From an uncultured delta proteobacterium (GTDB lineage: Bacteria; Myxococcota_A; UBA9160; SMWR01): a stretch of 64,000 nt of DNA. The stretch covers positions 128,001 to 192,000 of the forward strand of contig CAWHTE010000001.1 in assembly GCA_963832165.1 (NCBI GenBank). Reading direction: 5' to 3'. Position numbers and translations under genes: made by a program. Shown here in pieces: positions 3,024 through 20,804 of this stretch. The notes beneath the pieces are model-generated. The model saw only the letters and a list, made by a program, of their open reading frames with translations, was not told where the DNA came from and ran no database searches. Every line of letters begins with the position of its first letter. The first letter of the stretch is position 1.

Positions 3024-3384
3024 TCGGCCGACTCCGTCGGCCTCCTTGCTGGAGCAGCGCCTTCAGATCCGGCGGGATCTCCATGCGCTCGAAGAAGCCG
3101 ACGTTCGCGCCGCCCGTGTTGCCGCCGGGCGGAATGCCGAGCGCCGACCCGATCGCCGCGGCGGGCAGCCGCACGATCTGCCCCACGATCTCGCGCACGT
3201 CGCGGCGCAGCCAGCCGATGTGCAGCATCTCGACGTGCGTGCGCACGTGCGGCACGACGTACTGCTGACCCAGGATGTGCGCGCGCTCGAGGTGGCGGAA
3301 CGCGTCGTCGAGCGAGCCCGCGCGGCGCGCGGCTTCGGCCTCGCGCAGCTCGGACTCGAACGCCGAGCGCAGCTTCGGATTCAT
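3007..3384 (-). CDS. DUF3703-like protein
   Basis: Motifs AFRHLERAHILGQ, H-x3-H and P.GNTGGANV..F..M.IP.DL, as I recall for DUF3703. Confidence 0.75.
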   Translation of the reverse strand: MNPKLRSAFESELREAEAARRAGSLDDAFRHLERAHILGQQYVVPHVRTHVEMLHIGWLRRDVREIVGQIVRLPAAAIGSALGIPPGGNTGGANVGFFERMEIPPDLKALLQQGGRRSRPTRSEA

Positions 3385-4628
3385 CGCGCCGAGGATAGTC
3401 GAACCCGCAGGTGATCGGGACCGCGGAAGGCGACGCCCCGGATGCACGGGGCCCGGAAGCGCGGATCGACATGGAGCTCGGCGAAGCGATCGAGCAGCGC
3501 GCCGATCGCGACGGTCGCTTCGAGGATCGCGAGGCGCGAGCCCGCGCAGTAGTGGCGGCCGAGCCCGAACGCGAGGTGCGCCTCGCCCTGCCGATCGACG
3601 TCGAAGCGGTCCGGGTCGGGGAAGCGGGTCTCGTCGCGATTCGCGGAGCCGATCCCGAGCACGAGGTCGCGGCCGCGCGCGATGCGCGTCCCCGCGATCT
3701 CGACGTCCTCCGTCGCCGTGCGCGAAAGGATCTGGATCGGCGACTCCCAGCGCAGCGTCTCCTCGAGCAGACGGCCGATCCGGCTGCGGTCCGCGCGCAC
3801 CGACGCGAAGAGCGCCGGGTCGCGCAGCATCGCGAAGAGCGCACTCCCGAGCAGGTGATAGGTCGTCTCGGCTCCCGCGAGCACGAGCAGGTAGAGAAAG
3901 CTGATCACCTCCTCGTCGGTCAGCGCACCTCCAAGGGCGGTGGCCGAGGCGAGCTCGCTGATCAGATCGTTGCCGGGCCGGGATCGCTTCTGGGAGACGA
4001 GCGGCGCGAGCGCGGCCGCCATGTTCTTCACCGCGGCGAAGCCGCGCCCGGGATCGGTCGCGACCATCGAGAGATCGGCCGACCAGCCGTGAAACGTCCT
4101 CACGTGCTCGGGCGCAAGACCGAGGATCTCCGTGAACACGCGCAGCGGATACACGTACGTGAACTCCGCCACGAGATCGGCGGCATCCCGCTGCTCGAAC
4201 GAGTCGATCACGGCCTCGGCGATCGACGCGACGATGCGCGGAAACTCACCCGCGAGCGAGCGCGGAGCGAGCGACGGCGTGATCAGGCTGCGGTGCTTCA
4301 AGTGCTCCCGGCCGTCCATTCCGATCAGCGTCCGCCCGATCACGATGCCGATGCCGCGGTCCGTGTTCGACCGGCTCGAGAAGCGCTCGTGGTCGCGCAG
4401 GACGGCGAGTACGTCGTCGTAGCGGGACACGAAGTACGAAGTCCCGGAGAGCAGCTCGACCACGGGCGCTTCGCGGCGCGCTCGGGCATAGAGCGGGTAG
4501 GGGTTCGCGATCGGCGCGGTCGGCCCGGCCAGGAACATGTCGGGGACCGTGAGCGGCAGGATCTCGTCGGTGGACCCGATCGTTTGCAGCGAACTGATAT
4601 CGACAGCGGCGGCGGCTACATCGTGCAT
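3381..4628 (-). CDS. Cytochrome P450
   Basis: I-helix AGAETT, ExxR (ETLR) and heme motif FGLGRHYCAG. Exact start uncertain. Confidence 0.93.
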   Translation of the reverse strand: MHDVAAAAVDISSLQTIGSTDEILPLTVPDMFLAGPTAPIANPYPLYARARREAPVVELLSGTSYFVSRYDDVLAVLRDHERFSSRSNTDRGIGIVIGRTLIGMDGREHLKHRSLITPSLAPRSLAGEFPRIVASIAEAVIDSFEQRDAADLVAEFTYVYPLRVFTEILGLAPEHVRTFHGWSADLSMVATDPGRGFAAVKNMAAALAPLVSQKRSRPGNDLISELASATALGGALTDEEVISFLYLLVLAGAETTYHLLGSALFAMLRDPALFASVRADRSRIGRLLEETLRWESPIQILSRTATEDVEIAGTRIARGRDLVLGIGSANRDETRFPDPDRFDVDRQGEAHLAFGLGRHYCAGSRLAILEATVAIGALLDRFAELHVDPRFRAPCIRGVAFRGPDHLRVRLSSAR

Positions 4629-4743: not shown

Positions 4744-6483
4744 CTACGCGAGTCCGAGCTCCGCGAGCACGGCCATCTGCGCCAGGTCGCCGTCGATCAC
4801 GAGGCGCCGCGTGTTGAAGGCCTCCGCGCCCGAGAGATCTCCGTTCGCGATCTGCAGATAGCTCGCCGCATCGGCACGGATCGTCACCGTGGCATCGGCG
4901 CGCTCGGCGGGCGCGGTGTCGATCGTGAGCGCGCCGTCGCGCACCGCGAGGATCCACGTGCCGCCGTGCTCTCCCGTGAGCGCGTACTGCACCACGAGCT
5001 CGACGCCCGCGGCCTTCGCGGGATCGAAGCGGCTCGCCATCGCGGCGAACAGCTGCTCGACGGAGTCGACGCGGCGGGCCGCGAGCCGCGCGGCGCGCGC
5101 CCGCTCGCGCGCGAGCACGTCGGCTTCCATCGCCGCGATCGACTCGGCGAGGATCGCCGCGATCTGGTCCGCGCACGCGCGATCGATCGTGAGCGGAGGC
5201 GCGAGTCCCACCACCTCCGTCCCCATCGCGCGCACGTAGAGCCCGCGCTGCCAGGCTTCCGCTTCCACGCGTGCACAGGCCGAGTGCGGCTTCGAGAAGC
5301 CGCGCCGCGTCGCCTTGTCGGCGACGAGCTCGATGCCGATCATGAGCCCCACGCCGCGGATATCGCCCACGGAATCGAAGCCGCCGAGCATCTCGCGCAA
5401 GCGCTCGATCAGATAGGCGCCCACGTCGGCTGCGTTCTCGGCCAGGCGTTCGCGTTCGAGGATCTCGATGTTGGCGAGGGCCGCGGCGCAGCACGTGGGA
5501 TGGCCCATGTACGTGAAGCCGTGGCTGATCGGCATCTGGTTCGGCAGCTTCGCGCTGATCGTCTGGTAGATCTCCTCGGAGACCACCGACGCGCCGAGCG
5601 GCAGATAGCCGCTCGTGATCCCCTTCGCGAGCGTCACGACGTCGGGCCGCACGCGATAGCGCTCGAAGCCGAACATCGTTCCCGTGCGCCCGAAGCCCGT
5701 CACGACCTCGTCGAGGATCAACAGGATCCCGTGGCGGTCGCAGATCTCGCGGATGCGCTCGAAGTAGTCGTCGGGCGGGGGGATGATGCCGCCTGCGCCG
5801 TACACGGGCTCGGCGATGAACGCCGCGATCGTCTCGGCGCCGTCGCGCTCGATCAGGCGCTCGAGCTCGTCGGCGCACGCGAGCCGGCAGCTCGGATAGG
5901 TCTTGCCGAGCTCGCACTTGAAGCAGTAGGGTGCCGCGACGTGCGCGAAGCCGGGCGCCTCGGGTCCGAAGTTCCAGCGCAGCGGCATGATGCCCGTGGC
6001 GGTCATCGTCGCGATCGTGAGTCCGTGATAGGCATGGTGGCGAGCCACGATCGTCGTGCGCCGCTCCTCGCCGCGCAGCGCCCAGTAGAGGCGCACGAGC
6101 TTGATCGACGTCTCGTTGGCCTCCGACCCGCCCGACGAGAACATCACGTGCGAGAGGCCGTACTCGCGCGGGAACATCGAGCACAGCTTCTCGGCGAGCT
6201 CGATCGCGCGCGGGTGGGACTGGCCGTGGAAGGTCGTGAAGTACTCGAGCGTCTCCATCTGCTCGCGCACGGCCGCGATGATCTCGGGGCGCCCGTGCCC
6301 GACCGCCACGCACCAGAGCCCGGAGAACCCGTCGATCAGGCGGTGTCCGCGATCGTCGGTGATCCACCAGCCGTCGCCTTCGACGATCACGCGCGCGCCG
6401 TCGCTCTCCATCTCGCGTGGCGGCGTGAGCGGGTGGATCAGATGGGCGGCGTCGCGCTCGGCGAGCGGGGTCCGCCCGGGCAT
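4744..6483 (-). CDS. Class III PLP aminotransferase with C-terminal SCP2 (sterol carrier) domain
   Basis: GLWC..GHG, SGGSEANE, DEVVTGFGRTG and the PLP lysine in TLAKG. The C-terminal ~105 aa (FDPAKAAG...GGTW...ADATVTI...AF...L.IDGD) is SCP2-like. Confidence 0.9.
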   Translation of the reverse strand: MPGRTPLAERDAAHLIHPLTPPREMESDGARVIVEGDGWWITDDRGHRLIDGFSGLWCVAVGHGRPEIIAAVREQMETLEYFTTFHGQSHPRAIELAEKLCSMFPREYGLSHVMFSSGGSEANETSIKLVRLYWALRGEERRTTIVARHHAYHGLTIATMTATGIMPLRWNFGPEAPGFAHVAAPYCFKCELGKTYPSCRLACADELERLIERDGAETIAAFIAEPVYGAGGIIPPPDDYFERIREICDRHGILLILDEVVTGFGRTGTMFGFERYRVRPDVVTLAKGITSGYLPLGASVVSEEIYQTISAKLPNQMPISHGFTYMGHPTCCAAALANIEILERERLAENAADVGAYLIERLREMLGGFDSVGDIRGVGLMIGIELVADKATRRGFSKPHSACARVEAEAWQRGLYVRAMGTEVVGLAPPLTIDRACADQIAAILAESIAAMEADVLARERARAARLAARRVDSVEQLFAAMASRFDPAKAAGVELVVQYALTGEHGGTWILAVRDGALTIDTAPAERADATVTIRADAASYLQIANGDLSGAEAFNTRRLVIDGDLAQMAVLAELGLA

Positions 6484-6486
6484 CGG

Positions 6487-7302
6487 CTAGCGCGCACCGC
6501 GCTTCGCGCGCGCGTCGATCGTGTTGCGCTTCACCGCGCGCCGCATGAACTCGGGTGCGACCGCCTGGATCACGTAGGCGGGCGAGATCCCGCCCGGGTA
6601 GGTGATCTCGTGCTTGCCCTTCGCAAGCGCATCCATCGTCGCGTCGACGAGCGCTTCCACCTCCACCATGCCGCGCTTCGCGGCCGGCGGCATGCGCGAC
6701 AGCGCCTCCTCGTCGAAGAACGGCGTGCGGATCACGCCCGGGCACACCGTGAGCACGTGCACGCCCGCGTCCTCGACCTCGAGCGAGAGCGAGGCGGCCA
6801 GTCCGACCATCGCGAACTTCGAGGCCGCGTAGGCCGACTCCTCGGGAGGTGCGATCTTGCCCGCGACCGACGCGACGAACACGAGCCAGCCGCGCCGCTG
6901 CTCCACCATCGCAGGCAAGAGCGCCTTCGTGAAGTAGAGCGTTCCGAAGTAGTTCACGCGCATCACGCGTTCCATGTCCTCGACCGACCACTCGAGGAAG
7001 GTGCGGTGATGTCCGTAGCCCGCATTGTTCACGAGCATGTCGATGCCGCCCCAGACCTCGCGCGCGCGCGCCGCCGTGGCCGCGACCTCCGCCGCGCTGG
7101 ACACGTCGCACGGCAGCACCACGGCCTCGCTTCCGCCGGAGCGGATCTCGGCCGCGAGCTTCTCGAGCTCCTCCGCGCGGCGCGCCACGAGCGCCACGCG
7201 CGCGCCCTCGCGCGCGAGCCGCAGCGCGAGCGTGCGGCCGATGCCGCTCGAGGCGCCCGTCACGAGCGCGCGCAGCCCCTGGTAGGAGCGCAGCCGCGTC
7301 AT
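6487..7302 (-). CDS. Short-chain dehydrogenase/reductase
   Basis: TGASSGIG, NNAG, S...YAASK; ATG overlaps the TetR stop. Confidence 0.92.
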   Translation of the reverse strand: MTRLRSYQGLRALVTGASSGIGRTLALRLAREGARVALVARRAEELEKLAAEIRSGGSEAVVLPCDVSSAAEVAATAARAREVWGGIDMLVNNAGYGHHRTFLEWSVEDMERVMRVNYFGTLYFTKALLPAMVEQRRGWLVFVASVAGKIAPPEESAYAASKFAMVGLAASLSLEVEDAGVHVLTVCPGVIRTPFFDEEALSRMPPAAKRGMVEVEALVDATMDALAKGKHEITYPGGISPAYVIQAVAPEFMRRAVKRNTIDARAKRGAR

Positions 7303-7940
7303 CGCGCGTTCTCGACGAGCGCGAGGATCACCGACTGCAGGTGCTGCTTGGTGCGCTCGCGGATGCGCGGGTCGGAGAGGTCCTTTCCGAACAGCTTCTT
7401 GTAGTGCGCAGTCGACAGGATGTGGTGGTGCAAGATTCCCTCCACGGTGATCAGCAGCAGGCCCAGATCGTGTTTGGGGGCGCCGAGCCTCTGGCCCGAG
7501 AGCGACTCGTCGATGAACTGCACCCAGCTCTGCTCCTTCAGCGAGACGCCCTTCGCGAGGCCTTCGCCGAGTGTTGCGCGTACCGAGAGCGCCACCCAGC
7601 CGCGCTTCTCGAGAAAGAAATCGAACAGCTCCTCGACGACCTTCTCGACCGTCGTCGCGAGATCGCCCTGGCCCGCGACCACCGCGCCGACGCGCTTGAG
7701 GATCTCGTCGTCCCAGCGCGAGAGCACCGCCTGGTACAGGCCCGGCTTCGAGCCGAAGTGGTGCTGGATCGTGAACGGGCGCACGCCGCATGCGCGCGAG
7801 AGCTCGCGCACCGACACGCCGCGGTAGCCGCGGTTCGCGAACAGGCGCTCGGCGCGGTCGAGGATCCGGGTGCGCGTGCGCTCGGCCTCCTCCTGCGAGC
7901 GCCGGCCGGCCGGGCGCGACTGGACTTTCTTATTGGCCAT
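7299..7940 (-). CDS. TetR/AcrR family transcriptional regulator
   Basis: N-terminal HTH: RILDRAERLFANRGYRGVSVRELSRACGV...HHFGSK. Confidence 0.9.
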   Translation of the reverse strand: MANKKVQSRPAGRRSQEEAERTRTRILDRAERLFANRGYRGVSVRELSRACGVRPFTIQHHFGSKPGLYQAVLSRWDDEILKRVGAVVAGQGDLATTVEKVVEELFDFFLEKRGWVALSVRATLGEGLAKGVSLKEQSWVQFIDESLSGQRLGAPKHDLGLLLITVEGILHHHILSTAHYKKLFGKDLSDPRIRERTKQHLQSVILALVENAR

Positions 7941-7975
7941 GTGTACAGTAAAACACCGCGCGCGCTCCGAGTCAA
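7941..7975 (-). promoter_or_regulatory. Candidate leaderless promoter for tetR (TTGACT-17 bp-TTTACT-6 nt-ATG)
   Basis: -35 at 7975-7970, -10 at 7952-7947, ATG at 7940 with no room for an RBS; lies in the short divergent intergenic region. Confidence 0.5.
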
Positions 7976-8023
7976 CGCGCGCGTTCCCCGAAACCCCCCG
8001 GAATCCAGGCATCTGGAGGTCGC

Positions 8024-9271
8024 ATGCGCGCGCTCGTGATCGGCAGCGAGATGGCGCGGCTCATCGTCACCCGGTTGCTCGCCGCGCTCTCGCCGCGCGC
8101 GTTCGTGGGCCCGACCTCGACGCTGCGGCTGTGCGAAATCCCCGAGCCCACGCTGCCGGCACCCGATTGGGCGGTCGCGCGCACGCGCCTGTGCGGTCTG
8201 TGCGGCAGCGACTACAAGCAGGTGTTCATGAACGGGGCGTTCGACAGCCCGATGACCGCGATGATCTCGTGGCCGCAGGTGCTCGGGCACGAAGTGGTCG
8301 GCGTGATCGACGAGGTCGGACCCGCAGCGACGCGCCGCCGGATCGGCGAGCGCGTGGTGTTGAACCCGTGGCTGTCGTGCGAGACGCGCGGCCTGCCGCT
8401 GTGCGACTGGTGCGAGGAGGGCGACCTCGCGCAGTGCCTGAACTTCGCGCGCGGCAGCGCGGCACCCGGCATCCACACCGGCAACAGCTCGACCGCGACG
8501 GGCGGATTCGCGCAGCGCGTGCCCGCGCACGAATCGCAGTGGATCCCGATTCCCGACGAGATCAGCGACGACGCGGCCGTGCTCGCCGACCCGTTCTCGG
8601 TCTCGCTGCACGCGATCCTGCGCACGCCGCCGCCGCCGGGCGGCACCGCGCTCGTGTACGGTGCCGGCACGCTGGGTCTGTTCGCGATCGCGATCCTGCG
8701 CCTGCTCCACCCGCACGTACGCGTGCTCGCGGTGGCGCGCTTCGATCACCAGGCGCAGCTCGCGGAGAAGTTCGGTGCGGATCGCGTGTTTTCTTACCGG
8801 CCGGCGCTCGGGATCATCGAGGCCGTCGCGGAGGCGTGCGGCGCCGAGATCGCGCGCCCCTGGAGAGGGCTCCCGATGCTTCTCGGCGGTGCCGACGTGG
8901 TGTACGACACCGTGTCGTCGCCCGAGACTCTCGAGGTCGGACTCCGGATCGCGAACATCCGCGGGAGCATCGTGGCGCTCGGCGTCGAGCCGCCGCGCCG
9001 CTTCGAGTGGACGCCGCTCTACTTCAAGGAGATCTCGATCGTCGGATCGAACGGCTTCGGGATCGAGGAGTACGACGGGCGCCGGCAACACGCGATCGAG
9101 TGGTACTTCGAGTTCCTGCGCACGAAGCAGATCGATCTGACTCCGATCATCACGCACCGCTTCCCGCTCGCGGGCTACCGCGATGCCTTCATGACCTGTT
9201 ATTCGCAAGGCGACAACGGCGCCGTGAAGGTGCTGTTCGACCGCTTCACCGACGAGGAGACTTTGCGATGA
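8024..9271 (+). CDS. Zinc-dependent dehydrogenase (MDR, polyol/threonine DH-like)
   Basis: CGLCGSD, GHE, structural Zn cysteines (C..RG...CDWC...C) and GAGTLG. Confidence 0.9.
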   Translation: MRALVIGSEMARLIVTRLLAALSPRAFVGPTSTLRLCEIPEPTLPAPDWAVARTRLCGLCGSDYKQVFMNGAFDSPMTAMISWPQVLGHEVVGVIDEVGPAATRRRIGERVVLNPWLSCETRGLPLCDWCEEGDLAQCLNFARGSAAPGIHTGNSSTATGGFAQRVPAHESQWIPIPDEISDDAAVLADPFSVSLHAILRTPPPPGGTALVYGAGTLGLFAIAILRLLHPHVRVLAVARFDHQAQLAEKFGADRVFSYRPALGIIEAVAEACGAEIARPWRGLPMLLGGADVVYDTVSSPETLEVGLRIANIRGSIVALGVEPPRRFEWTPLYFKEISIVGSNGFGIEEYDGRRQHAIEWYFEFLRTKQIDLTPIITHRFPLAGYRDAFMTCYSQGDNGAVKVLFDRFTDEETLR

Positions 9272-12200
9272 GCCGCGTGCTCTTGGGAATCGATCTCGGA
9301 GGCGGCAGCGTCCACTGCACGCTGCTGGACGCCGACACGGGCGCGCGCTTCGAGGCCGCGCTCGCGATCACGAGCCAGTCGGCGGAAGGCACGAGCGGCC
9401 TCGGCTACGAGATCGCCACCGATGAGCTCTGGGCGCGCGTGGGCGAGACCACGCGCGCGGTGCTCGCTTGCGCGGGCGCCACGGGCGATGCCGTCGCGGG
9501 CGTGTCGGTGACAGCGATGCGCTTCACGTCGGTGGTGCTCGACGCGGCCGGCGAGGTGCTGTTCGCGGTGCCCAACCGCGATGCGCGCTCGGTCGGCGAG
9601 AGCATGCGGATCGCGGCCGAGCGCGGCCAGGCGGTGCTCGCGACCAGCGGCATGTGGCCGCTGCCGATCCACGCTGCGCCGCGCCTGTCGTGGCTGCGCA
9701 GCGCGCGGCCTGACGTGTTCGGGCGCGCGGTTACGCTGCTCTCGCTCTCGGACTGGCTGAACTTCCGGCTCTGCGGACGGCGGATCACCGACGAGACACA
9801 GGCGGGCTGCACGGGCCTGTTCGATCTGCGCAAACGCGAGTGGAACGCGGAGCTGATCGACGCGTTCGGGCTGCCGCGCGCGATCTTCCCCGAGGTGCGA
9901 CCGTCGGGCGAGCGGATCGGCGAGCTCGACGCGCGCGCCGCGCGCGAGCTCGGGCTCGCACCCGGCACGCCCGTGGCGCTCGGCGGCGGCGACACGCGCT
10001 GCGGACTGCTCGGCGCGGGCGCGATCGCCGACGGCGACGTGGGCCTGATTGCGGGAACCACCGCTCCGCTCGAGCTCGTGACCGACGAGCCCGTGATCGA
10101 CGGCGAGGGACGGCTGCGCAGCGGGCTTCACGCGGTGCCGGGGCGTTATGTGCTCGAGGCGAACGTGGGACCGGTCGGCGAGGGCCTGGCCTGGCTCGCG
10201 CGCCTGCTCCACCCGGACGACGCGCGGCCCGACGACCGCTTTGCGGCCGAGGCTTCGACCGCGGCGATCGGCTCGGCCGCGATGCTCGCGAACGTGGGCG
10301 CACTCGTGGCGAACGATCGCCAGCCCGCTTTCCCCGTCGGCATGTACTCGCTCTCCCACATGACGGGCACGCAGGGGCGCAGTGCGCGCGCGAGCCTCGC
10401 GCGCTCCGCGCTCGAGGGAGTGGCGTGTGCGGTGCGCGCGAACCTCGAGCAGCTCACGCGCGTCACGGGGCGCGATCTGCGCCGCATTCATCTCGCGGGC
10501 GGGCTCTCGCGCAGCGCGCTGTTCGCGCGGATCCTCGCGGGCATCACGCGCGCCGAGGTGGTGCGCGCGGCGGCGCCCGAGGCGACCGGCCTCGGCGCTG
10601 CGCTGTGCGCGGGCATCGGCGCGGGCGTGTTCGCGGACGCGCTCGACGCGGTGAGCCACGGCGTGCGCGCAGCGGAGACCTCCGCGCCGCAGGCGGCCGA
10701 GGCCGACGCGTACGAGCGGCTCTACGAGAGCTGGAGCGAGCTGCGCGACGCGGCCGAGCAGACCACGGCGCCGATCGCGATGCGCCACACGGTTCCGGCC
10801 GCGCTCGCCGCCTCGCAGCGCAACGGGCGGCGCGCCAAGGCCGCGCATCGGCCCAAGGCGCTCGTCACCGCGGCGTTCGACGACGCGTCGATCGAGCGGC
10901 TGCGCGGCTTCGCCGACGTCGAATACGCGAGCTTCCGCGACCGCATGCAGCTGCTCACGGGCGCGAGCCTGGTCTCGGCGCTCGCCGACTGCGACGTGCT
11001 GGTCACCGAGGTCGACGTCGTCGACGCGAAGGCGCTCGAAAAGCTTCCGAACCTGCGCGTGGTGGCGGCCTGCCGCGGCGACGCCGTGAACGTGGACGTG
11101 GCCGCGTGCAGCGCGTTCGGGATCCCGGTGCTGTTCGCGCCGGGCCGCAACGCCGACGCGGTGGCCGACCTCACCGTCGCGTTCCTGCTCAACCTCGCGC
11201 GGCGGCTGCCCGCGGCCACGAAGTTCCTCGCCGACCCGGCGGTGACGGCCGGCAATCTCGCGGCGATGGGCAAGGCGTTCCGGGGCCTGCAGGGCTACGA
11301 GCTCTGGTCGAAGACGGTGGGTCTGGTCGGACTCGGCGCGGTCGGGCGCGGCGTGGCGCGCCGGCTCTCGGGCTTCGGCGTGCGCCTGCTGGTCGCCGAT
11401 CCGTACGTCTCCGCGGAGGAGGCCGCGCTCGCGGGCGCCGAGAAGGTCGAGCAGGGCGAGCTCCTGCGCACGAGCGACTTCGTGAGCCTGCACGCGGCCG
11501 TCACCGACGCGACGCGCGGGCTGCTCGGCCCCGCGCAGTTCGCCGCGATGAAGCCCGGCGCGTATCTGATCAACACCGCACGCGCGGCGCTGGTCGACGA
11601 GGCCGCGCTGCTCGCGGCGCTCGACAGCGGGCACCTCGCGGGCGCTGCGCTCGACACGTTCGCGGTCGAGCCGCCCGGCGCCGATCACCCGCTCGTGCGC
11701 CACGGCAGCGTGATCCACACGCCGCACATCGGCGGCAACACGAACGAGGTCGCTGCGCACCAGGGCCGGAGTATCTCCGATGCGCTCGAGCAGCTCGTGC
11801 GCGGTGAGGCGCCGCGCTGTCTGCTCAATCCCGAGGCGCTCGCGGGCTTCAGCTGGACGGGTTCGCGCCGCGTGCCGACGGCCGACGAGCTCACCGCGCT
11901 CGCCAATCGCGCGGGCCCGGCCGTCACCGACCTGCAGCGCGACGCGCAGGCCGAGGCCCAGGAGGAGAAGCTCGAGCCGAGCGCCGCGCCCGCGGAGACG
12001 GTCGCGGCGATGAAGCGGATCCTCGAGACGTTCACGGCCGCGATGGCGCAGGACGAGCGCGTGCACGCGTTCAGCGCCGACAAGGACGTCGCGCTCTACT
12101 TCGTGCTGCCCGACATCGGCCTCGACCTCCACATCGCGCTGCGCGAGGGACGGGTCTCGGGCGGGCTCGGCAAGCCCGAGGGTGGCTCCGTGGTCCAGCT

Positions 12201-13083
12201 GCGCATGCGCGCGGCGATCCTGGACGGGATGTTCACGGGCAAGGTGAACGCGATGGAAGCCGCGATGCAGGGCGAGGTCGCGTTCACGGGCGACGCCGGC
12301 AAGGCGATGGCGATCCAGCAGCTCCAGGGCGACATGCGGCGGCTCTACAGCGCCGCGCGCGAAGAGGTGGGCGATCCGGGCGACCTCGCCGCGATTCCGC
12401 AGCCGGGCGCGGCGCCGGGCGCCGCCGCTGCGGCGAAGCCCGTCGGCTCCGACGACGTCCGCGTCGAGATCGTCTCGATCACCCAGGAGCTCTACGAGAA
12501 CCAGGTGATCACCGCGACGGGCGGCAACGTGTGCGCGCGGATCCCGGGCAAGCCGGACGAGGTCTGGATCACGCCGAGCCAGCTGTTCAAGGGCGATCTG
12601 CGGCCCGAGGTACTCGTGCGGATCGACCTCGATGGCAAGTCGCTCGACGAGGGCTCGCGCTCGGCGTCGTCCGAGTGGAGCATGCACACGCAGATCCTCA
12701 AGAAGAAGCCCGAGGCGAAGGCCGTGATCCACGCCCACGCGCCGTTCGCGACCACGCTCGCGAACACGGGGCTGCCGTTCCTGCCGATCAGCACCGAGGC
12801 CGCCTTCTTCGGCGACATCCCGCGCGTGCCGTTCATCATGCCCGGCACCGACGCGCTCGCGGAGGCGGTCTCCGAAGCGATGAAGGACAGCTGGGCCGTG
12901 TTCATGGTGAACCACGGGCTGGTCGTGTGCGGGCGCAGCCTGCGCCGCGCGGCCGACATGGTGGAGATCGTCGAGCGCTCGGCACAGCTGATCCTGGGCT
13001 GCTATGCGGTGGGCAAGGAGCCGCCGGTGCTGCCCGAGAAGACGGTCGCGATGCTGCGCAAGATGGGCGATCTGGTCGCGTAG
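9268..13083 (+). CDS. Four-domain fusion: FGGY carbohydrate kinase - D-2-hydroxyacid dehydrogenase - SCP2 - class II aldolase (1271 aa)
   Basis: One uninterrupted frame from the ATG overlapping the upstream stop. FGGY: GIDLGGGS, GGGD, AGG.SRS. Dehydrogenase: GLGAVG, INTAR, DTF..EP, TPHIGG. SCP2: GKVNAMEAAMQGEVAFTGD. Aldolase: GGNV, SSEW.MH, HAH, NHG. Confidence 0.88.
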   Translation: MSRVLLGIDLGGGSVHCTLLDADTGARFEAALAITSQSAEGTSGLGYEIATDELWARVGETTRAVLACAGATGDAVAGVSVTAMRFTSVVLDAAGEVLFAVPNRDARSVGESMRIAAERGQAVLATSGMWPLPIHAAPRLSWLRSARPDVFGRAVTLLSLSDWLNFRLCGRRITDETQAGCTGLFDLRKREWNAELIDAFGLPRAIFPEVRPSGERIGELDARAARELGLAPGTPVALGGGDTRCGLLGAGAIADGDVGLIAGTTAPLELVTDEPVIDGEGRLRSGLHAVPGRYVLEANVGPVGEGLAWLARLLHPDDARPDDRFAAEASTAAIGSAAMLANVGALVANDRQPAFPVGMYSLSHMTGTQGRSARASLARSALEGVACAVRANLEQLTRVTGRDLRRIHLAGGLSRSALFARILAGITRAEVVRAAAPEATGLGAALCAGIGAGVFADALDAVSHGVRAAETSAPQAAEADAYERLYESWSELRDAAEQTTAPIAMRHTVPAALAASQRNGRRAKAAHRPKALVTAAFDDASIERLRGFADVEYASFRDRMQLLTGASLVSALADCDVLVTEVDVVDAKALEKLPNLRVVAACRGDAVNVDVAACSAFGIPVLFAPGRNADAVADLTVAFLLNLARRLPAATKFLADPAVTAGNLAAMGKAFRGLQGYELWSKTVGLVGLGAVGRGVARRLSGFGVRLLVADPYVSAEEAALAGAEKVEQGELLRTSDFVSLHAAVTDATRGLLGPAQFAAMKPGAYLINTARAALVDEAALLAALDSGHLAGAALDTFAVEPPGADHPLVRHGSVIHTPHIGGNTNEVAAHQGRSISDALEQLVRGEAPRCLLNPEALAGFSWTGSRRVPTADELTALANRAGPAVTDLQRDAQAEAQEEKLEPSAAPAETVAAMKRILETFTAAMAQDERVHAFSADKDVALYFVLPDIGLDLHIALREGRVSGGLGKPEGGSVVQLRMRAAILDGMFTGKVNAMEAAMQGEVAFTGDAGKAMAIQQLQGDMRRLYSAAREEVGDPGDLAAIPQPGAAPGAAAAAKPVGSDDVRVEIVSITQELYENQVITATGGNVCARIPGKPDEVWITPSQLFKGDLRPEVLVRIDLDGKSLDEGSRSASSEWSMHTQILKKKPEAKAVIHAHAPFATTLANTGLPFLPISTEAAFFGDIPRVPFIMPGTDALAEAVSEAMKDSWAVFMVNHGLVVCGRSLRRAADMVEIVERSAQLILGCYAVGKEPPVLPEKTVAMLRKMGDLVA

Positions 13084-13084
13084 T

Positions 13085-13705
13085 CTACGCCGAGTCGACT
13101 CTCGCCCGGAGCGCCGTCCGTTCCGCCGCGGTGACCACGCGCGGCGCGCACACCAGCGCGCCGGTCGCGTCGAAGAACGGCCCGCGGCGGTGATCGCCGC
13201 GCAGCCGCGCGGCGAGAGCGATCCAGAAGAGCCGGAGGATCACCGACGCAGGAAAGCGGTCGTGCGCATCCAGCTGCTCGCGATGCTTCGCGAAGCGGGC
13301 GTGACCGCGGGTGCGGATCGGTCCGAGCACCTGCTCGCGCGCGCTCTCGGGCGCATCGATGCAGCTGTGGATCAGGCCCACGAACGGCACCTGCCGCGAG
13401 GCGAGCGTATTGCCGATCGGGGTGCGGCAGCACGCCGCGTACCAGCGCACGAGGCCGCCGGGTGCGAGGCGCATGCAGGCCAGGCGATCGGCGCCCGCGC
13501 TGATCTCGAGATGGGCGGGAGACATCTGGAAGATCTCGGTGCCGCCGTGTTCGTCGAGCGTCTCCTTCGCGGCGTCGAGGAAGTGCGCGAACGCCTGGCA
13601 GTCGTCGCAGTAGCAGTAGACGCGGTTCCCGAGCTCGCCCGAGACGCCGCGCGCGCTCCCGCGCAGCGCTCCGCAGCTGCATCGGATCGGGAGATCGGCG
13701 GGCAT
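13085..13705 (-). CDS. DUF6151/GFA-like Zn-binding protein
   Basis: CSCG, CYCDDCQAFA and RWYA.CC.TP.GN cysteine pattern. Confidence 0.7.
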   Translation of the reverse strand: MPADLPIRCSCGALRGSARGVSGELGNRVYCYCDDCQAFAHFLDAAKETLDEHGGTEIFQMSPAHLEISAGADRLACMRLAPGGLVRWYAACCRTPIGNTLASRQVPFVGLIHSCIDAPESAREQVLGPIRTRGHARFAKHREQLDAHDRFPASVILRLFWIALAARLRGDHRRGPFFDATGALVCAPRVVTAAERTALRARVDSA

Positions 13706-13723
13706 CGGACGTGCGCCGTACGC

Positions 13724-14956
13724 CTAGCGCGCCGGCGCGAGCTCCCAGCGCAGGGGCACGCGCTTGATGCCGCCCACGAACGACGACCGCACGCGGTCGA
13801 CCGGCCCCGCGAGCTCGGCGCGCACGAGTCGCGTGCGCAGCTCCTCGAACACGGCGCGGATCTCGAGCCGCGCGAGATGGGCACCCAGGCACACGTGCTC
13901 GCCGCGCCCGAAGCCGACATGGTCGTTGGGCTGGCGGTCGATCCGGAACACGTCGCCGTCGGGGAAGATCTGCTCGTCGCGGTTCGCCGACGGGTAGAAC
14001 AGGCACAGCGACTGTCCGGCGCGGATCGCCTGGCCGCGCAGCGAGAAATCCTCGGTCGCGGTGCGGCAGAACTGGATCACAGGCGTCGTCCAGCGCACGA
14101 TCTCCTCGATCGCGGGTGTCACGAGCGCCTCGTTCTCCTGGAGCCGCTTCCACTCGCCCGGATTCTCGAGGAACGCGAGCATGCCACCCGTCATCGCGTT
14201 GCGCGTCGTCTCGTTGCCGGCCACCACGAGCAGGAAGAGGTAGGACAGCAGCTCGACGGGGGGCAGCGCGCGCCCGTCCACAGAGGCGTTGGCCACCTCG
14301 CTCACGATGTCGTCGTTCGGCTGGCTCCGCCGGCGCTCGGCGAGCTCGTGGAAGTAGGCGAACACCTCGTGGCGCGCGCCGTCGATCGTCTTCTGCGCGT
14401 CGCCATCGCGCTGAAACTCCGGGTCTTCGGGCGCGATGACCTCGTTGGTCCAGCGGAACAAGAGCGGCCAGTCCTCGTCGGGCAGGCCCAGCATCAGCGC
14501 GATCACCGCGATCGTGATCGGCGCGGACACGTCCTTCACGAAGTCGATCTGCTCGCGCTGCGCAGCGGCGTCGAGCACGTCGCGCGTGATCCGGCGCACC
14601 TTCGACTCCCAGCCCTGCGCCGCGCGCGGCGTGAAGCGCTTGCTCGCGACCTGGCGGTACTTCGCGTGGTCGGGCGGGTCCATGTTGAGCAGATGGCGCG
14701 TCTCGCCCTCGGGCGGCGGCGGGACCTTGTTGTCGAACACCGCGAGGCGCGGCGCATTCTGGAGCGTCTTGGGGTGCTTGCCCAGCCAGACGACATCGGC
14801 GTGCTTGGTGACGACCCAGAACGGATCGAAGTTCGGCCGCTCGTACCACAACACCGGCGCGTGCTGGCGCAGGTATGCCCACTCGCGATGCGGATAGCCG
14901 TGCTGCTCGTAGTGCTCGGGGTTCATCACGTCGATCGTCGCGAGATCGAAGCTCAT
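13724..14956 (-). CDS. Cytochrome P450 (resembles CYP125/CYP142-type lipid/steroid oxidases)
   Basis: MDPPDH..YR, VAGNETTRN, EEIVRW and FGRGEHVCLG. Confidence 0.93.
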   Translation of the reverse strand: MSFDLATIDVMNPEHYEQHGYPHREWAYLRQHAPVLWYERPNFDPFWVVTKHADVVWLGKHPKTLQNAPRLAVFDNKVPPPPEGETRHLLNMDPPDHAKYRQVASKRFTPRAAQGWESKVRRITRDVLDAAAQREQIDFVKDVSAPITIAVIALMLGLPDEDWPLLFRWTNEVIAPEDPEFQRDGDAQKTIDGARHEVFAYFHELAERRRSQPNDDIVSEVANASVDGRALPPVELLSYLFLLVVAGNETTRNAMTGGMLAFLENPGEWKRLQENEALVTPAIEEIVRWTTPVIQFCRTATEDFSLRGQAIRAGQSLCLFYPSANRDEQIFPDGDVFRIDRQPNDHVGFGRGEHVCLGAHLARLEIRAVFEELRTRLVRAELAGPVDRVRSSFVGGIKRVPLRWELAPAR

Positions 14957-16251
14957 CGCGAGCCTCCGTTCGCCTTCGTCGCCACCTTCGGGAACGCGCG
15001 CGCGATCGCGAGCAGCCACTCCACGATGCGCACCACGTGCAGCGAGAGCACGGGCTTGCCGCTCGTGCACAGCGCAACCGACAGCGCGCGATCGGGGTCG
15101 GCCCACGAGAAGATGTTCGAGAATCCCAGGTGTCCGAACGCGCTCTCGCTGTCGGGCCCGAACAGCGAGAAGTTGGGGCTGCCGAGCATGAAGCCGAGCC
15201 CGTAGCGGAGCGGGAAGCCGAGCGTGAAGTCGACCTCCCACCACGCGGACTCGCCTGTGGCGTGGCGGATCGTCGCGGGGTCGAGCACGCGCACGCCGTT
15301 CTGCTCGCCGCCGTCGAGCAGGCACTGGTAGAACGCACACAGCTCGCTCGCGGTGGTGACCACGTTCGCGGACGGGATGATCCCGGTGAGGTAGCGCGGA
15401 TCGTTCGCGAGCTCGATCACGTGCTCGATGTCGGCCCCGAGCGCGTTGCGCAGGATCGCCGAGCCGGGCCACGGCACGGGCGGACCCGTCACCGCGTCGC
15501 GCGCAACGAGCGGCAGATCCTCCTTGCCCACGCCGTAGCGCATCCAGCGGTAGCCGAGCGGCTCGATCAGCTCGCGCTCGAGCACGGTGCGGATGTCGGA
15601 CCCCGTGACCCGCCGCACCACCTCGGCGAGCACGAAGCCGCCCGAGACGGCGTGATAGGCGAGCACGCGCCCGGGCCGCGACCGCAGCTCCGCGTCGCAC
15701 ATGATCTCGACCACCTTCTCGGGCTGACCGAGCAGATCGAGGTCCATCGACTCGGGCGGCAGATTCGGGATGCCGGCCTTGTGCGCGAGCAGGTGGCGCA
15801 ACGTGATGCGCTGCTTGCCGTGCTTGGCGAACTCGGGGATGAAATCGCACACGCGGTCTTCGAGGTGCAGCACGCGCTTCTCGTCGAGCTTGTGGATCAC
15901 CATCGCCGTGATCGCCTTGCTCGCCGAGAAGATGTCGAACGGGGTCTCGGTGCTGACCGAGAGCTTCGGCGCGTCGGGCGGGTCCTGCGGCGCGTTACCG
16001 CGCGCGTGGCCGATCGCGCGGTTGAGCACCACGACGCCCTGGCGCCGCACGCACAGCGACAGCGCGGGGTGTACGCCCGTGGCGTAGATCGCCTGCGTCG
16101 CGTCCCACACGCGCTCGACTTCGGCGGCCGCCACGTCCGAGCCGCCGGGATCCTCGGGGCCCACGTCGAGGTTTTCTTCGAGGTCGCGCGGGAGGCGACA
16201 CCGCTTCGTGCCGGGCAGGTTCAGCTGACCGATCCAGTGGAGGGGGTCCAT
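14953..16251 (-). CDS. Serine hydrolase, beta-lactamase family (LipE-like esterase)
   Basis: FSASK (SxxK), LLAHKAG, YHAVSGG, AFGHLG. Confidence 0.87.
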   Translation of the reverse strand: MDPLHWIGQLNLPGTKRCRLPRDLEENLDVGPEDPGGSDVAAAEVERVWDATQAIYATGVHPALSLCVRRQGVVVLNRAIGHARGNAPQDPPDAPKLSVSTETPFDIFSASKAITAMVIHKLDEKRVLHLEDRVCDFIPEFAKHGKQRITLRHLLAHKAGIPNLPPESMDLDLLGQPEKVVEIMCDAELRSRPGRVLAYHAVSGGFVLAEVVRRVTGSDIRTVLERELIEPLGYRWMRYGVGKEDLPLVARDAVTGPPVPWPGSAILRNALGADIEHVIELANDPRYLTGIIPSANVVTTASELCAFYQCLLDGGEQNGVRVLDPATIRHATGESAWWEVDFTLGFPLRYGLGFMLGSPNFSLFGPDSESAFGHLGFSNIFSWADPDRALSVALCTSGKPVLSLHVVRIVEWLLAIARAFPKVATKANGGSR

Positions 16252-16276
16252 GGGGGGATCTCTTTCTGTGGGTTGA

Positions 16277-17602
16277 CTACGACTTTTCATCATCCTCGTT
16301 CACGGCGCCCGCGCCCAGGTAGACGTCGAGACCCGTGATCGAAGCGTTGCGGTAGGTGCGCGCCATCGCGGCTTCACAGTTCGATTGGCCGCGCCAGAAC
16401 GGGAAGCCGCCGAGCCGCGCCACGATCGCGCCGGGCTTGCGCGGGATGCGCACCTCGATCGCCTCGTCGCGGCTGCGCACGGCGCCGCCCCAGAACACCT
16501 CGGGATCCTCCGGGAGCGGCTCGTCGGGAATCACGCGCTCGGGCGGCGGCTCGATCACGGCGATGTTCGGCGCCACGAACGGCTCGCCCTCGTCCCCTTC
16601 GAGCAGCTCGCCGTCGGCTCCGTACGTGGGCTCGGAAGACGATGGCGGCATCGGCGCCCGCGGGATCGCCGCGGGTCCGAGCGCCGCGAGCAGCTCGCTG
16701 CGCTCCATGCCGCGAAGCTGGAAGATCAGGAACGGATCGCGGTCGAACTCCTCGCCGAGCAGGTAGTAGACGGCCGCCACGTGCTTGCATGGGTTCGCGT
16801 TGTCGGGGCACGAGCACGCGGCCTTGAGATCGCCGCTCGCGTTGGGGAAGAGCGACAGGCGCTGCTCTTCGAACACGCTCTCGATGCTTTCGGGGATGGT
16901 CCCCATGCCGAGTTCGACGGCGATGTCGGGGCGCTGCGCGAGCGCGCGCGTGAGCTTCTTCCAATCGGTGCTCGACAGCATCGAGAAGTGCATGCGCACG
17001 AGATACGGTGCGTCGCGCGAGCCCTGAACGTGCGCGGTGACGAAGCCCTTGCCGATCTCGATGTCGACGATGTGGCCCTGGCGCGCGTAGTTGCGGCCGC
17101 GTCCGAGCCGACGCCCGACCGCGAACCGCTCGAGCACTTCCACCCAGCGCCGCGCCCACCAGTTCTCACCGGTGCGCCCGCGCCGCGGGCGTCCGCGTTG
17201 ATTGTTGTTGCGCTGCGGTCGCCCTTGTCCGCGCCCGCGCCGGTTCCGGCCGCCGCTCTTGCCGCGCTGCTGGCCCTGCCAGCCGCCGCCGCCATTCCCG
17301 CCGCGCTGCGCACCATCGCCGTCGTCGCCGTCGTCGTGGAACACCTCGAGGTCGCGGAACAGCTCGGGCGGCCTCGCCGCGACGTCTGCGCCGCTCGCGC
17401 CCTCCACGCCCGGCGCGGCCGTCGGCGCGGCGTTCCAGGATCCGTTTCCGCCCGCGCCGCCGTTCTGCGCGTTCGGATCGACCGGGCCGCTCGGACCGCC
17501 GGGACCGCGCCCGCCGCGCCGGCGCCGCGGCCGTCGCCGCCGGCGGCGGGGTTCTCCGCCGCCTCCGCCGACTTGTCCGCCGCCCGGGCCTTCTTCGCTC
17601 AT
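16277..17602 (-). CDS. SWIM zinc-finger protein with long Gly/Arg-rich N-terminal extension
   Basis: WWARRW, RLGRGRNYARQG, CSCPD...PCKH (SWIM), FDRDPF.IF.LRG; start 2 nt after the helicase stop. Confidence 0.85.
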   Translation of the reverse strand: MSEEGPGGGQVGGGGGEPRRRRRRPRRRRGGRGPGGPSGPVDPNAQNGGAGGNGSWNAAPTAAPGVEGASGADVAARPPELFRDLEVFHDDGDDGDGAQRGGNGGGGWQGQQRGKSGGRNRRGRGQGRPQRNNNQRGRPRRGRTGENWWARRWVEVLERFAVGRRLGRGRNYARQGHIVDIEIGKGFVTAHVQGSRDAPYLVRMHFSMLSSTDWKKLTRALAQRPDIAVELGMGTIPESIESVFEEQRLSLFPNASGDLKAACSCPDNANPCKHVAAVYYLLGEEFDRDPFLIFQLRGMERSELLAALGPAAIPRAPMPPSSSEPTYGADGELLEGDEGEPFVAPNIAVIEPPPERVIPDEPLPEDPEVFWGGAVRSRDEAIEVRIPRKPGAIVARLGGFPFWRGQSNCEAAMARTYRNASITGLDVYLGAGAVNEDDEKS

Positions 17603-17604
17603 CG

Positions 17605-20600: not shown

Positions 20601-20804
20601 GGCCTCGGTCTTGCGGCGCGCAGTGGGCCGGAACGCGATCGGCAGATCGCGCGCGGCGCGCGTGACGGCCTCGGCCCCGGCGTCGTAGGGGTAGGGCGCC
20701 GGGCGCTCGCCGCGGCGGCCCTTGCTCGATGCGGCGCCCTCGGCCGGCGACTCTCCCCAGAGGAAGAGCGCGTCGTCTAGGAGCGCGCCGTGCAGGATGA
20801 TCAT
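17605..20804 (-). CDS. SNF2-family (DEAD/DEAH-box) helicase, reading frame broken by about 5 indels
   Basis: LRPYQ, LADDMGLGKT, DEAQ, LTGTP.EN, SLKAGG.GLNL, QATDRAFRIGQ. Homologous sequence switches frame near 20300, 20180, 19960, 19790 and 17712. Confidence 0.88.

Follow-up and report, generated by a model that had tools for sequence, protein, structure and literature searches.

What would a bacterium break down with a single polypeptide that carries a kinase, a dehydrogenase, an SCP2 domain and an aldolase in one chain? The question is raised by a locus in a 64,000-nucleotide stretch of DNA from an uncultured delta proteobacterium of the Myxococcota_A (GenBank assembly GCA_963832165.1, contig CAWHTE010000001.1, positions 128,001 to 192,000 of the forward strand), hereafter the window, to whose first letter all positions refer. 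The 1271-residue fusion enzyme encoded there probably represents a form of kinase-aldolase polyol catabolism that has not been described before and is adapted to a hydrophobic substrate. An even chance, judged from sequence and gene context, is given to that substrate being a hopanoid, most likely bacteriohopane-32,33,34,35-tetrol (BHT), whose tail the enzyme would remove. An earlier note on this DNA had read five genes at 4744-13083 as a pathway for an amino-polyol lipid, with phytosphingosine as the lead substrate and an amino-hopanoid as the alternative; its outline of an undescribed hydrophobic-polyol route ending in FucA-type cleavage to dihydroxyacetone phosphate (DHAP) and a lipid aldehyde is kept here, as is the hopanoid alternative, whereas phytosphingosine is given up as the lead.

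The fusion enzyme and its likely chemistry

The fusion and the genes around it are arranged as follows (bit scores of SCP2 domains are against a Pfam cut-off of 21.3).

3381-4628, minus strand: cytochrome P450 (Pfam p450), 115 nucleotides (nt) past the aminotransferase and outside the span of the earlier note
4744-6483, minus strand: class III omega-transaminase with a C-terminal SCP2 domain, 579 amino acids (aa; Pfam Aminotran_3 31-447, SCP2 486-574)
4762-5028, minus strand: SCP2 domain of the aminotransferase (Pfam PF02036, 45.7 bits)
6487-7302, minus strand: classical short-chain dehydrogenase/reductase (SDR), 271 aa (Pfam adh_short)
7299-7940, minus strand: TetR-family regulator, 213 aa (Pfam TetR_N)
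7941-8023, no strand: divergent promoter region, 83 nt, with a block at about 7943-7961 conserved in three relatives (DNA alignment)
8024-9271, plus strand: Zn-dependent medium-chain dehydrogenase/reductase (MDR) of the polyol-dehydrogenase type, 415 aa (Pfam ADH_N/ADH_zinc_N)
9268-13083, plus strand: fusion enzyme, 1271 aa, in the order FGGY kinase, D-2-hydroxyacid-dehydrogenase fold, SCP2, class II aldolase
9280-10620, plus strand: FGGY kinase domains of the fusion (Pfam FGGY_N/C; nearest solved protein LsrK, 5ya0, E 9e-51)
10873-11817, plus strand: nicotinamide adenine dinucleotide (NAD) dehydrogenase domain of the fusion (2-Hacid_dh/_C), with the triad R772/E801/H820 and a family-specific R603
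12100-12324, plus strand: SCP2 domain of the fusion (Pfam SCP2, 31.8 bits)
12466-12993, plus strand: class II (FucA-type) aldolase domain of the fusion (Aldolase_II; nearest solved protein DrdA, 6btd, E 5e-26)

The five genes from the aminotransferase to the fusion all lie where the earlier note had placed them, and they do form two tightly coupled divergent operons, tetR-SDR-aminotransferase:SCP2 facing the Zn-dehydrogenase and the fusion, with junctions of 3-4 nt (SDR and tetR overlap by 4 nt, the aminotransferase and SDR are 3 nt apart, and MDR and fusion overlap by 4 nt). Its view that SCP2 had been attached to the two enzymes independently agrees with the lack of significant similarity between the two SCP2 domains (at best 21.5% over 65 aa, E 0.41). 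No convincing operator palindrome was found in the promoter region.

The fusion is no artefact, given that the best 120 listed homologues all carry the same enzyme domains, and an alignment of 46 relatives shows the catalytic residues of all three enzyme domains to be invariant. In the kinase domain these are D9, R85 and D242. In the dehydrogenase domain they are the Arg-Glu-His triad R772, E801 and H820, which agrees with a D-2-hydroxyacid dehydrogenase fold (fold search, Z 30-32 to McyI and PHGDH); the R603 pattern is matched by 115 of the 120 homologues, and the aligned position in human PHGDH is a glycine. In the aldolase domain H1155, H1157, H1216, E1136, T1082-N1087 and S1134-S1135 are invariant, as expected of the class II fold; this domain was aligned to DrdA and FucA and reaches Z 27.6 to 4c25. 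Two positions of the FucA pocket differ, F131 being replaced by proline in 118 of the 120 homologues and Y113 by Thr or Ser in 119, and an F131A mutation allows FucA to accept bulky aldehydes (PMC3962088; here and below, citations refer to the accessible part of each source). An AlphaFold model of the last three domains has a mean pLDDT of 86.5; the fold-search matches listed for it all come from the dehydrogenase and aldolase domains, which filled the list. The SCP2 domain of the fusion matches mammalian SCP2 (1c44) weakly (E 0.0036).

Three more familiar identities were tried for the enzyme domains and rejected. The dehydrogenase is not SerA (208.5 bits against an NCBIfam cut-off of 454, with R603 in place of the PHGDH glycine), and the aldolase is not FucA (110.9 against 264 bits and 88.5 against 400 bits, with pocket residues Y113/F131 replaced). 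Nor is the kinase LsrK, the nearest solved kinase, with a role in autoinducer-2 processing, as it scores 230.5 bits against a cut-off of 528 and has no lsr genes among its annotated neighbours.

The company that the domains keep bears on the reaction. Among 56 loci, the kinase and the dehydrogenase are never apart where both are visible, and natural truncations occur in which six proteins end after the dehydrogenase (L044, L045, L047, L056, L057, L059), one has a separate aldolase and no SCP2 (L058) and two are without an aldolase (L258, L260); Atlas clusters of kinase-dehydrogenase-only proteins hold 246 and 56 members. SCP2 is kept in most members of the family and duplicated in four proteins, the homologues P0013, P0014, P0015 and P0102 having two such domains in tandem. 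Unfused relatives of the dehydrogenase, 36-43% identical, have R603 in six of six cases, and in five of seven plasmid regions they adjoin an FGGY kinase and a gene of the class II aldolase fold, the exceptions being Mesorhizobium and Halapricum. In the Klebsiella trio the third gene is MtnB (332.9 bits, cut-off 226), the substrate of which is a 5-substituted ribulose-1-phosphate; such a compound would therefore be the product of the kinase and dehydrogenase together. DrdA, the nearest solved relative of the aldolase domain, cleaves 5-deoxyribulose-1-phosphate to DHAP and acetaldehyde (PMC6079011).

Since the kinase and the dehydrogenase are inseparable, the most likely substrate of the fusion is a 1,2,3,4-tetrol, which it would phosphorylate, oxidise and split by aldol cleavage, and we consider it likely that this kinase-oxidation-aldol sequence acts on a hydrophobic polyol. 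The order that we infer runs from polyol to polyol 1-phosphate, to ketose 1-phosphate, to DHAP and an aldehyde, with the dehydrogenase domain proposed from gene context to be a polyol-phosphate 2-dehydrogenase acting at C2 of the polyol 1-phosphate. The kinase and aldolase steps of the earlier mechanism survive in this scheme; what that mechanism had left out is the 2-hydroxyacid dehydrogenase domain of the fusion.

The same unfused clusters bear on a different substrate, namely a small soluble 5-substituted pentitol (of the methylthio-, amino- or aryl-ribitol type), in which case SCP2 would be an insert that has a structural role or tethers the enzyme to the membrane. The unfused trios are accompanied by ABC or MFS transporters for sugars and by sugar regulators, the Klebsiella mtnB gene sits in a gene block inserted into a methionine-salvage cluster (PMC3228920), and natural variants of the fusion do without SCP2, all of which would suit a small substrate. 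Such a substrate is nevertheless judged unlikely, considering that most members have retained SCP2 and some have two copies of it, that the four-domain form has no recurrent sugar-transporter neighbour in the annotated loci, and that the partner genes described below are lipid enzymes in two phyla. A riboflavin-type ribityl substrate was considered and rejected because, by our own reasoning, its stereochemistry would suit a FucA-type aldolase poorly.

Two of the unfused clusters deserve mention in their own right. On a Klebsiella plasmid record (L269:4788-7930), one operon comprises mtnB and the genes of an FGGY kinase and an R603-type dehydrogenase. It adjoins a molybdopterin oxidoreductase and a sugar ABC transporter and is a candidate route by which a methylthio-pentitol would enter methionine salvage. 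On a Paracoccus denitrificans plasmid (L270:4025-14457), the unfused trio stands with CoA transferases, an acetolactate-synthase-like gene and molybdopterin enzymes, an uncharacterised pathway in a model organism.

Distribution, partner genes and candidate ring lipids

To place the enzyme in a wider context, 92 other fusion loci were gathered (49 from Myxococcota and 43 from Proteobacteria, two genomes being counted twice with the gene split over contigs); neighbour tallies cover 91 of them, one having been left unscored, and rest on a simple gene caller by which some genes were missed or split. A fusion orthologue, whole or partial, is carried by 36 of 60 relatives (19 have it at full length in a single frame; in the others it is cut by contig ends, split or shortened), by 22 of 251 genomes of the phylum and by 41 of 301 genomes of the Halioglobus family, which we take to be the Halieaceae. 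It is rare in two other groups that were sampled, with one in 351 genomes for the family of a Novosphingobium record and one in 51 for the order of a Spongiibacteraceae record. Named carriers among the best 120 homologues listed include Halioglobus, Spongiibacteraceae, Myxococcota and Mycobacterium kansasii; the closest named relative of the locus is a Myxococcota record, and no relative was found on viral contigs.

The widespread unit is the fusion, not the five-gene block. The five genes, which had been put forward as a conserved unit, are co-located in only one of the 92 other loci, that of a relative with 84% identity. No other of the 92 has a class III aminotransferase of whatever kind near the fusion, and in 64 of them the upstream DNA reaches far enough for one to have been seen. 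The aminotransferase:SCP2 gene is found in two of 193 genomes of the order, and no SCP2-bearing aminotransferase was found in the five fusion-positive Halieaceae genomes checked; a locus of the same genus (L048) keeps SDR, tetR, MDR and fusion and is without the aminotransferase. Orthologues of tetR lie near the fusion in two of the 91 scored loci, those of SDR in four and those of MDR in four. Across genomes MDR has the closer link to the fusion, being present at no less than 48% identity in 24 of 36 fusion-positive versus 4 of 24 fusion-negative relatives, kin that are not independent of one another.

The genes that do recur beside the fusion are of other kinds. A CasG-like ligase, in most cases immediately downstream of the fusion, is present in 30 of the 91 loci and in two phyla, and a Rieske oxygenase whose nearest solved relatives are KshA in 29; less frequent are a glyoxalase-fold gene (19), an amidohydrolase (18), a thiolase-like protein, often with a ChsH2-type partner (15), a carotenoid/stilbene oxygenase (10), one P450 family (9) and the P450 family of the window (8). 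In Halieaceae these genes make up a recurrent block, one side of which holds the amidohydrolase and KshA-like oxygenase and the other side the fusion, the glyoxalase-fold gene and the acyl-CoA synthetase, often followed by a P450 and a pair of acyl-CoA dehydrogenases. In Myxococcota loci, too, the fusion is flanked by this ligase (49-54%) and by this Rieske family (42-47%). When scored against NCBIfam, seven of seven fusion-adjacent ligases have CasG (NF052580) as their best family, at 626-693 bits, with the next family at 370 or below, whereas eight other ligases reach at most 315 bits on the CasG model; in five of five genomes, chosen for having an adjacent ligase, that ligase is the top CasG match genome-wide. 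To CasG itself the ring system of a substrate matters less than its C5 side chain (PMC8399759). As a separate observation, a lignostilbene/carotenoid-cleavage-type oxygenase and a TonB receptor lie upstream of the fusion at L307:4226-5635 and in nine other Halieaceae loci.

If BHT is the substrate, the FGGY domain would phosphorylate its terminal C35 hydroxyl, the NAD domain would oxidise C34 to give an analogue of a 5-substituted ribulose-1-phosphate, and the Zn aldolase would cleave C32-C33 to yield DHAP and a C32 aldehyde, while SCP2 would hold the hopane end. BHT is ribose-derived, so the compound presented to the aldolase would be a 5-hopanyl analogue of the DrdA substrate. Most hosts would then oxidise the C32 aldehyde to the C32 acid, activate it with the neighbouring CasG-like ligase and pass it to steroid-type side-chain oxidation. 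The chain of C32 hopanoic acid, ring-CH(CH3)CH2CH2COOH, is the chain of a C24 bile acid, the very chain that CasG activates, and for that reason a CasG-like partner fits BHT cleavage. We know of no other abundant natural ring-lipid with a linear terminal 1,2,3,4-tetrol.

In the source genome, the SCP2-tagged omega-transaminase would act as an accessory feeder by stripping the terminal amine of 35-aminobacteriohopanetriol, and MDR or SDR would reduce the resulting aldehyde to BHT or else dispose of the C32 aldehyde; deamination and reduction as a side feeder would explain why the fusion occurs without the aminotransferase in most hosts. The whole entry route, from aminotriol through BHT, the C32 aldehyde and C32/C30 acids to a C27 21-ketone by way of the CasG-like, acyl-CoA dehydrogenase and ChsH2/Ltp2-like partners, is put forward tentatively and is open to considerable doubt.

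The partner genes would also be compatible with a steroid polyol, for instance a bile alcohol or a side-chain-hydroxylated sterol, that is trimmed to a C24 aldehyde, which the CasG-like ligase would channel into bile-acid catabolism. Both CasG and KshA belong to steroid metabolism (PMC8399759), and other recurrent neighbours are P450, heteromeric acyl-CoA dehydrogenases and ChsH2-type proteins. We regard this as improbable, as the common C27 side chains are branched at C25 and, by our own reasoning, would give no DHAP by FucA chemistry; moreover, neither a ketosteroid dehydrogenase nor a 9,10-seco ring-cleavage dioxygenase is among the annotated neighbours, whole genomes not having been searched for them.

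Several results weigh against BHT cleavage as the function of the fusion. Hopene cyclase is present in 9 of 36 fusion-positive versus 9 of 24 fusion-negative relatives (p 0.39) and in none of five Halieaceae, and with no link to hopanoid synthesis the substrate would have to be a scavenged lipid. The adjacent ligases all score below the CasG cut-off of 750 bits and are thus not CasG proper, and by a hand tally a CasG-like ligase is carried by 32 of 36 fusion-positive relatives but also by 13 of 24 fusion-negative ones. The source genome (89% complete) is without a top-tier CasG-like ligase, its best reaching 517 bits, and so is the other aminotransferase-bearing genome (G004, 71% complete). 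With dozens of lipid-type genes in the source genome (44 P450, 45 ligase and 17 thiolase-like hits), chance would be expected to place generic lipid genes beside the fusion, and these carry little weight; the argument rests on orthologous partners common to two phyla. Furthermore, the Halieaceae fusion loci may all descend from one ancestral block, and in many genomes of family f1 the fusion sits amid housekeeping genes. Regarding the chemistry, the unfused relatives adjoin sugar transporters, and a survey of 2-hydroxyacid dehydrogenases names, in its accessible part, no member that oxidises a polyol phosphate (PMC6303947).

Two related ideas, that the fusion turns over the cell's own hopanoid or that MDR is the missing ribosylhopane reductase, were rejected for want of any correlation with hopanoid synthesis. 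The source genome does have a hopanoid cluster (L274, G000:C4:286000-303000) with hpnE, a cyclase in two pieces, an hpnG-like gene and hpnH, and the break in the cyclase may be a sequencing error.

The aminotransferase and its companion genes

The aminotransferase has the hallmarks of a class III omega-transaminase, with K287 (the pyridoxal-phosphate lysine), D258, Y152 and W57 invariant and R418 nearly invariant in 46 relatives. Its nearest solved proteins, among the best 60 of 129 solved matches, are omega/polyamine transaminases that act on terminal amines, a preference that suits the terminal C35 amine of 35-aminobacteriohopanetriol. It falls short of two putrescine-pyruvate transaminase-like subfamilies of NCBIfam, scoring 475.3 bits against a cut-off of 510 for PRK07480 and 500.3 against 575 for PRK07481. 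Most of its best 120 listed homologues combine Aminotran_3 with SCP2, so this second fusion is no artefact either; aminotransferase:SCP2 constitutes a distinct family, whose named members include Acidimicrobiia. The fumonisin aminotransferase FumI, also of class III, acts on a sphingoid-like amine; it is not among the best 60 of the 129 solved matches, nor is an HpnO model among the best 25 of 69 NCBIfam rows. Ribosylhopane, a precursor, and aminotriol are interconverted by an aminotransferase in hopanoid biosynthesis (PMC12583986). The reaction proposed here would be that of HpnO (ribosylhopane to aminotriol) in reverse, and the accessible part of the same source describes no SCP2 domain for HpnO.

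In the earlier scheme, transamination of phytosphingosine would yield a 2-keto-1,3,4-triol that the kinase would phosphorylate and the aldolase cleave to DHAP and pentadecanal. Such a scheme is chemically possible: a FucA-type aldolase would accommodate the D-ribo stereochemistry of phytosphingosine (worked out by hand), coupling of the genes is tight at the window locus, and an M28 hydrolase-SDR fusion, possibly an amidase, lies near the fusion in two loci. Nevertheless, transamination would already produce the 2-keto-triol, so that nothing would be left for the invariant dehydrogenase to do, a straight-chain aldehyde would need no CasG-like, KshA-like or P450 partners, and the genes that accompany the fusion elsewhere are ring-lipid enzymes, not amine enzymes. 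The aminotransferase is also scarce beside the fusion (one of 92 loci, two of 193 genomes of the order, none of five fusion-positive Halieaceae) and occurs in two independent contexts without it (L148; L149/L150). Phytosphingosine is accordingly held to be very improbable as the substrate; no relevant publication on its bacterial catabolism was found.

Somewhat under an even chance is given to aminotransferase:SCP2 being a separate module for long-chain amines or aldehydes, inserted once in the genus and acting on another substrate, which is compatible with BHT cleavage by the fusion. A separate module would account for the two of 193 genomes of the order, for the absence from the same-genus locus and for the SDR-tetR-aminotransferase operon that the gene forms elsewhere. 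A metagenome scan with the aminotransferase returned SCP2-bearing forms in three loci (L148-L150) among the 80 matches listed, two of them nearly identical and the sampling thin, and all three have that operon with no fusion within 10 kb. Speaking for a tie to the fusion, the aminotransferase is coupled at the window locus to an SDR that recurs near MDR and the fusion (58-74% relatives near MDR orthologues in five other loci), and the SDR of its operon elsewhere is 52-59% identical to an SDR beside an MDR relative. The aldolase and dehydrogenase near the L149/L150 transaminase are distant paralogues (34-35%, no R603). It is possible, though doubtful, that the aminotransferase is a lineage-specific add-on that may feed amino-hopanoids into the fusion route; amination of the product aldehyde, or action on a long-chain amine with no relation to the route, would be just as conceivable.

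Further observations concern the relatives of these accessory genes. The L148-L150 contigs are of actinobacterial type, and one aminotransferase operon among them adjoins a wax-ester synthase and a patatin. SCP2-less aminotransferase relatives (48-50%; L128, L130, L134, L140) stand with a MaoC-like gene and an acyl-CoA synthetase beside tilS-ftsH; agmatinase had been considered as their neighbour and was rejected in favour of these two genes. The M28 hydrolase fused to an SDR (54% to the window SDR) is found in two Halieaceae loci, L304:14092-16158 and L303, directly downstream of the fusion and ligase, and M28 genes lie beside MDR orthologues in two further loci. The catalytic C60/H89 and four structural cysteines of MDR align with xylitol dehydrogenase 7y9p (E 7e-24).

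Known systems, implications and flanking genes

Among described systems, the DHAP shunt (DrdK-DrdI-DrdA) is alike in that a class II aldolase converts a 5-substituted ribulose-1-phosphate to DHAP and an aldehyde (PMC6079011). The shunt has an MTR-type kinase or phosphorylase and an aldose-phosphate isomerase, whereas here an FGGY kinase and an NAD dehydrogenase share one chain with SCP2; with a kinase of the FGGY type and no isomerase in the locus, the fusion does not belong to the shunt. The L-fucose route (FucK-FucA) likewise pairs an FGGY kinase with a FucA-type aldolase that has the same metal and catalytic residues, but the fusion lies far below the FucK and FucA cut-offs, has Y113/F131 replaced and adds a dehydrogenase and SCP2. 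The unfused trios (Klebsiella, Paracoccus, Burkholderia, Streptomyces and Halomarina plasmids) provide the same three activities with R603 dehydrogenases and differ in having separate genes, no SCP2 and a sugar-transport context; they are themselves uncharacterised. The yoaDC genes of B. subtilis are presumably similar to these trios. For their function only a guess has been offered in the accessible part of the source (PMC2885750).

Two lipid pathways are also instructive. The sphingosine-1-phosphate lyase route breaks down amino-polyol lipids, but neither a sphingoid kinase nor a pyridoxal-phosphate lyase is among the annotations of the locus, which is therefore not a member of that route. 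Genes similar to those of bile-acid side-chain catabolism (CasG/StdA1, heteromeric acyl-CoA dehydrogenases, ChsH-Ltp2; PMC8399759) recur beside the fusion, although the bile-acid routes start from an acid without a kinase-dehydrogenase-aldolase step, and a CasG-like ligase is not found in the window.

BHT occurs everywhere in soils and sediments, and it is to cleavage of its side chain that hopanoids above C30 in sediments have been traced (PMC8600536). No enzyme for that cleavage is named in the literature searched, outside which most subscription papers on hopanoid diagenesis fall, and no described enzyme or pathway matching the fusion was found in the literature searched, most subscription journals again lying outside it; for Rv0727c/Rv0728c/Rv0729 no relevant publication was found. 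Should the fusion act on hopanoids, it would represent the first known breakdown route for these abundant lipids and would serve as a genomic marker of hopanoid degraders in marine Halieaceae, uncultured Myxococcota and the Mycobacterium kansasii complex. Were the whole entry route to hold, the C32 and C27 hopanoids used as sediment biomarkers would be enzymatic products of identifiable bacteria. As a single expressible gene can be set against a defined lipid, the question of BHT cleavage is directly testable. Whatever the substrate, neither the dehydrogenase subfamily nor its many unfused small-molecule clusters have been characterised, and an aldolase suited to bulky aldehydes would be of interest for biocatalysis.

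Lastly, the flanks of the locus may be described. On the minus strand at 13085-16293, three genes (DUF6151, a second P450 and a LipE-like esterase) run towards the fusion, an arrangement that is kept in L021 and not elsewhere and is probably synteny only. Beyond it (16277-20804, minus strand), an SNF2 helicase/SWIM-domain region appears broken over several frames, with the helicase in frame with the SWIM protein and its N-terminal part elsewhere; the frame breaks are possibly assembly errors. On the opposite side, the P450 at 3381-4628 has 45-48% relatives near the fusion in six Halieaceae loci and in L254, and the best match of the Halieaceae protein in the source genome is in turn the P450 of the window. 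In view of this recurrence, the P450 is probably the distal gene of the tetR-SDR-aminotransferase operon, and the locus would extend past the left boundary drawn earlier.

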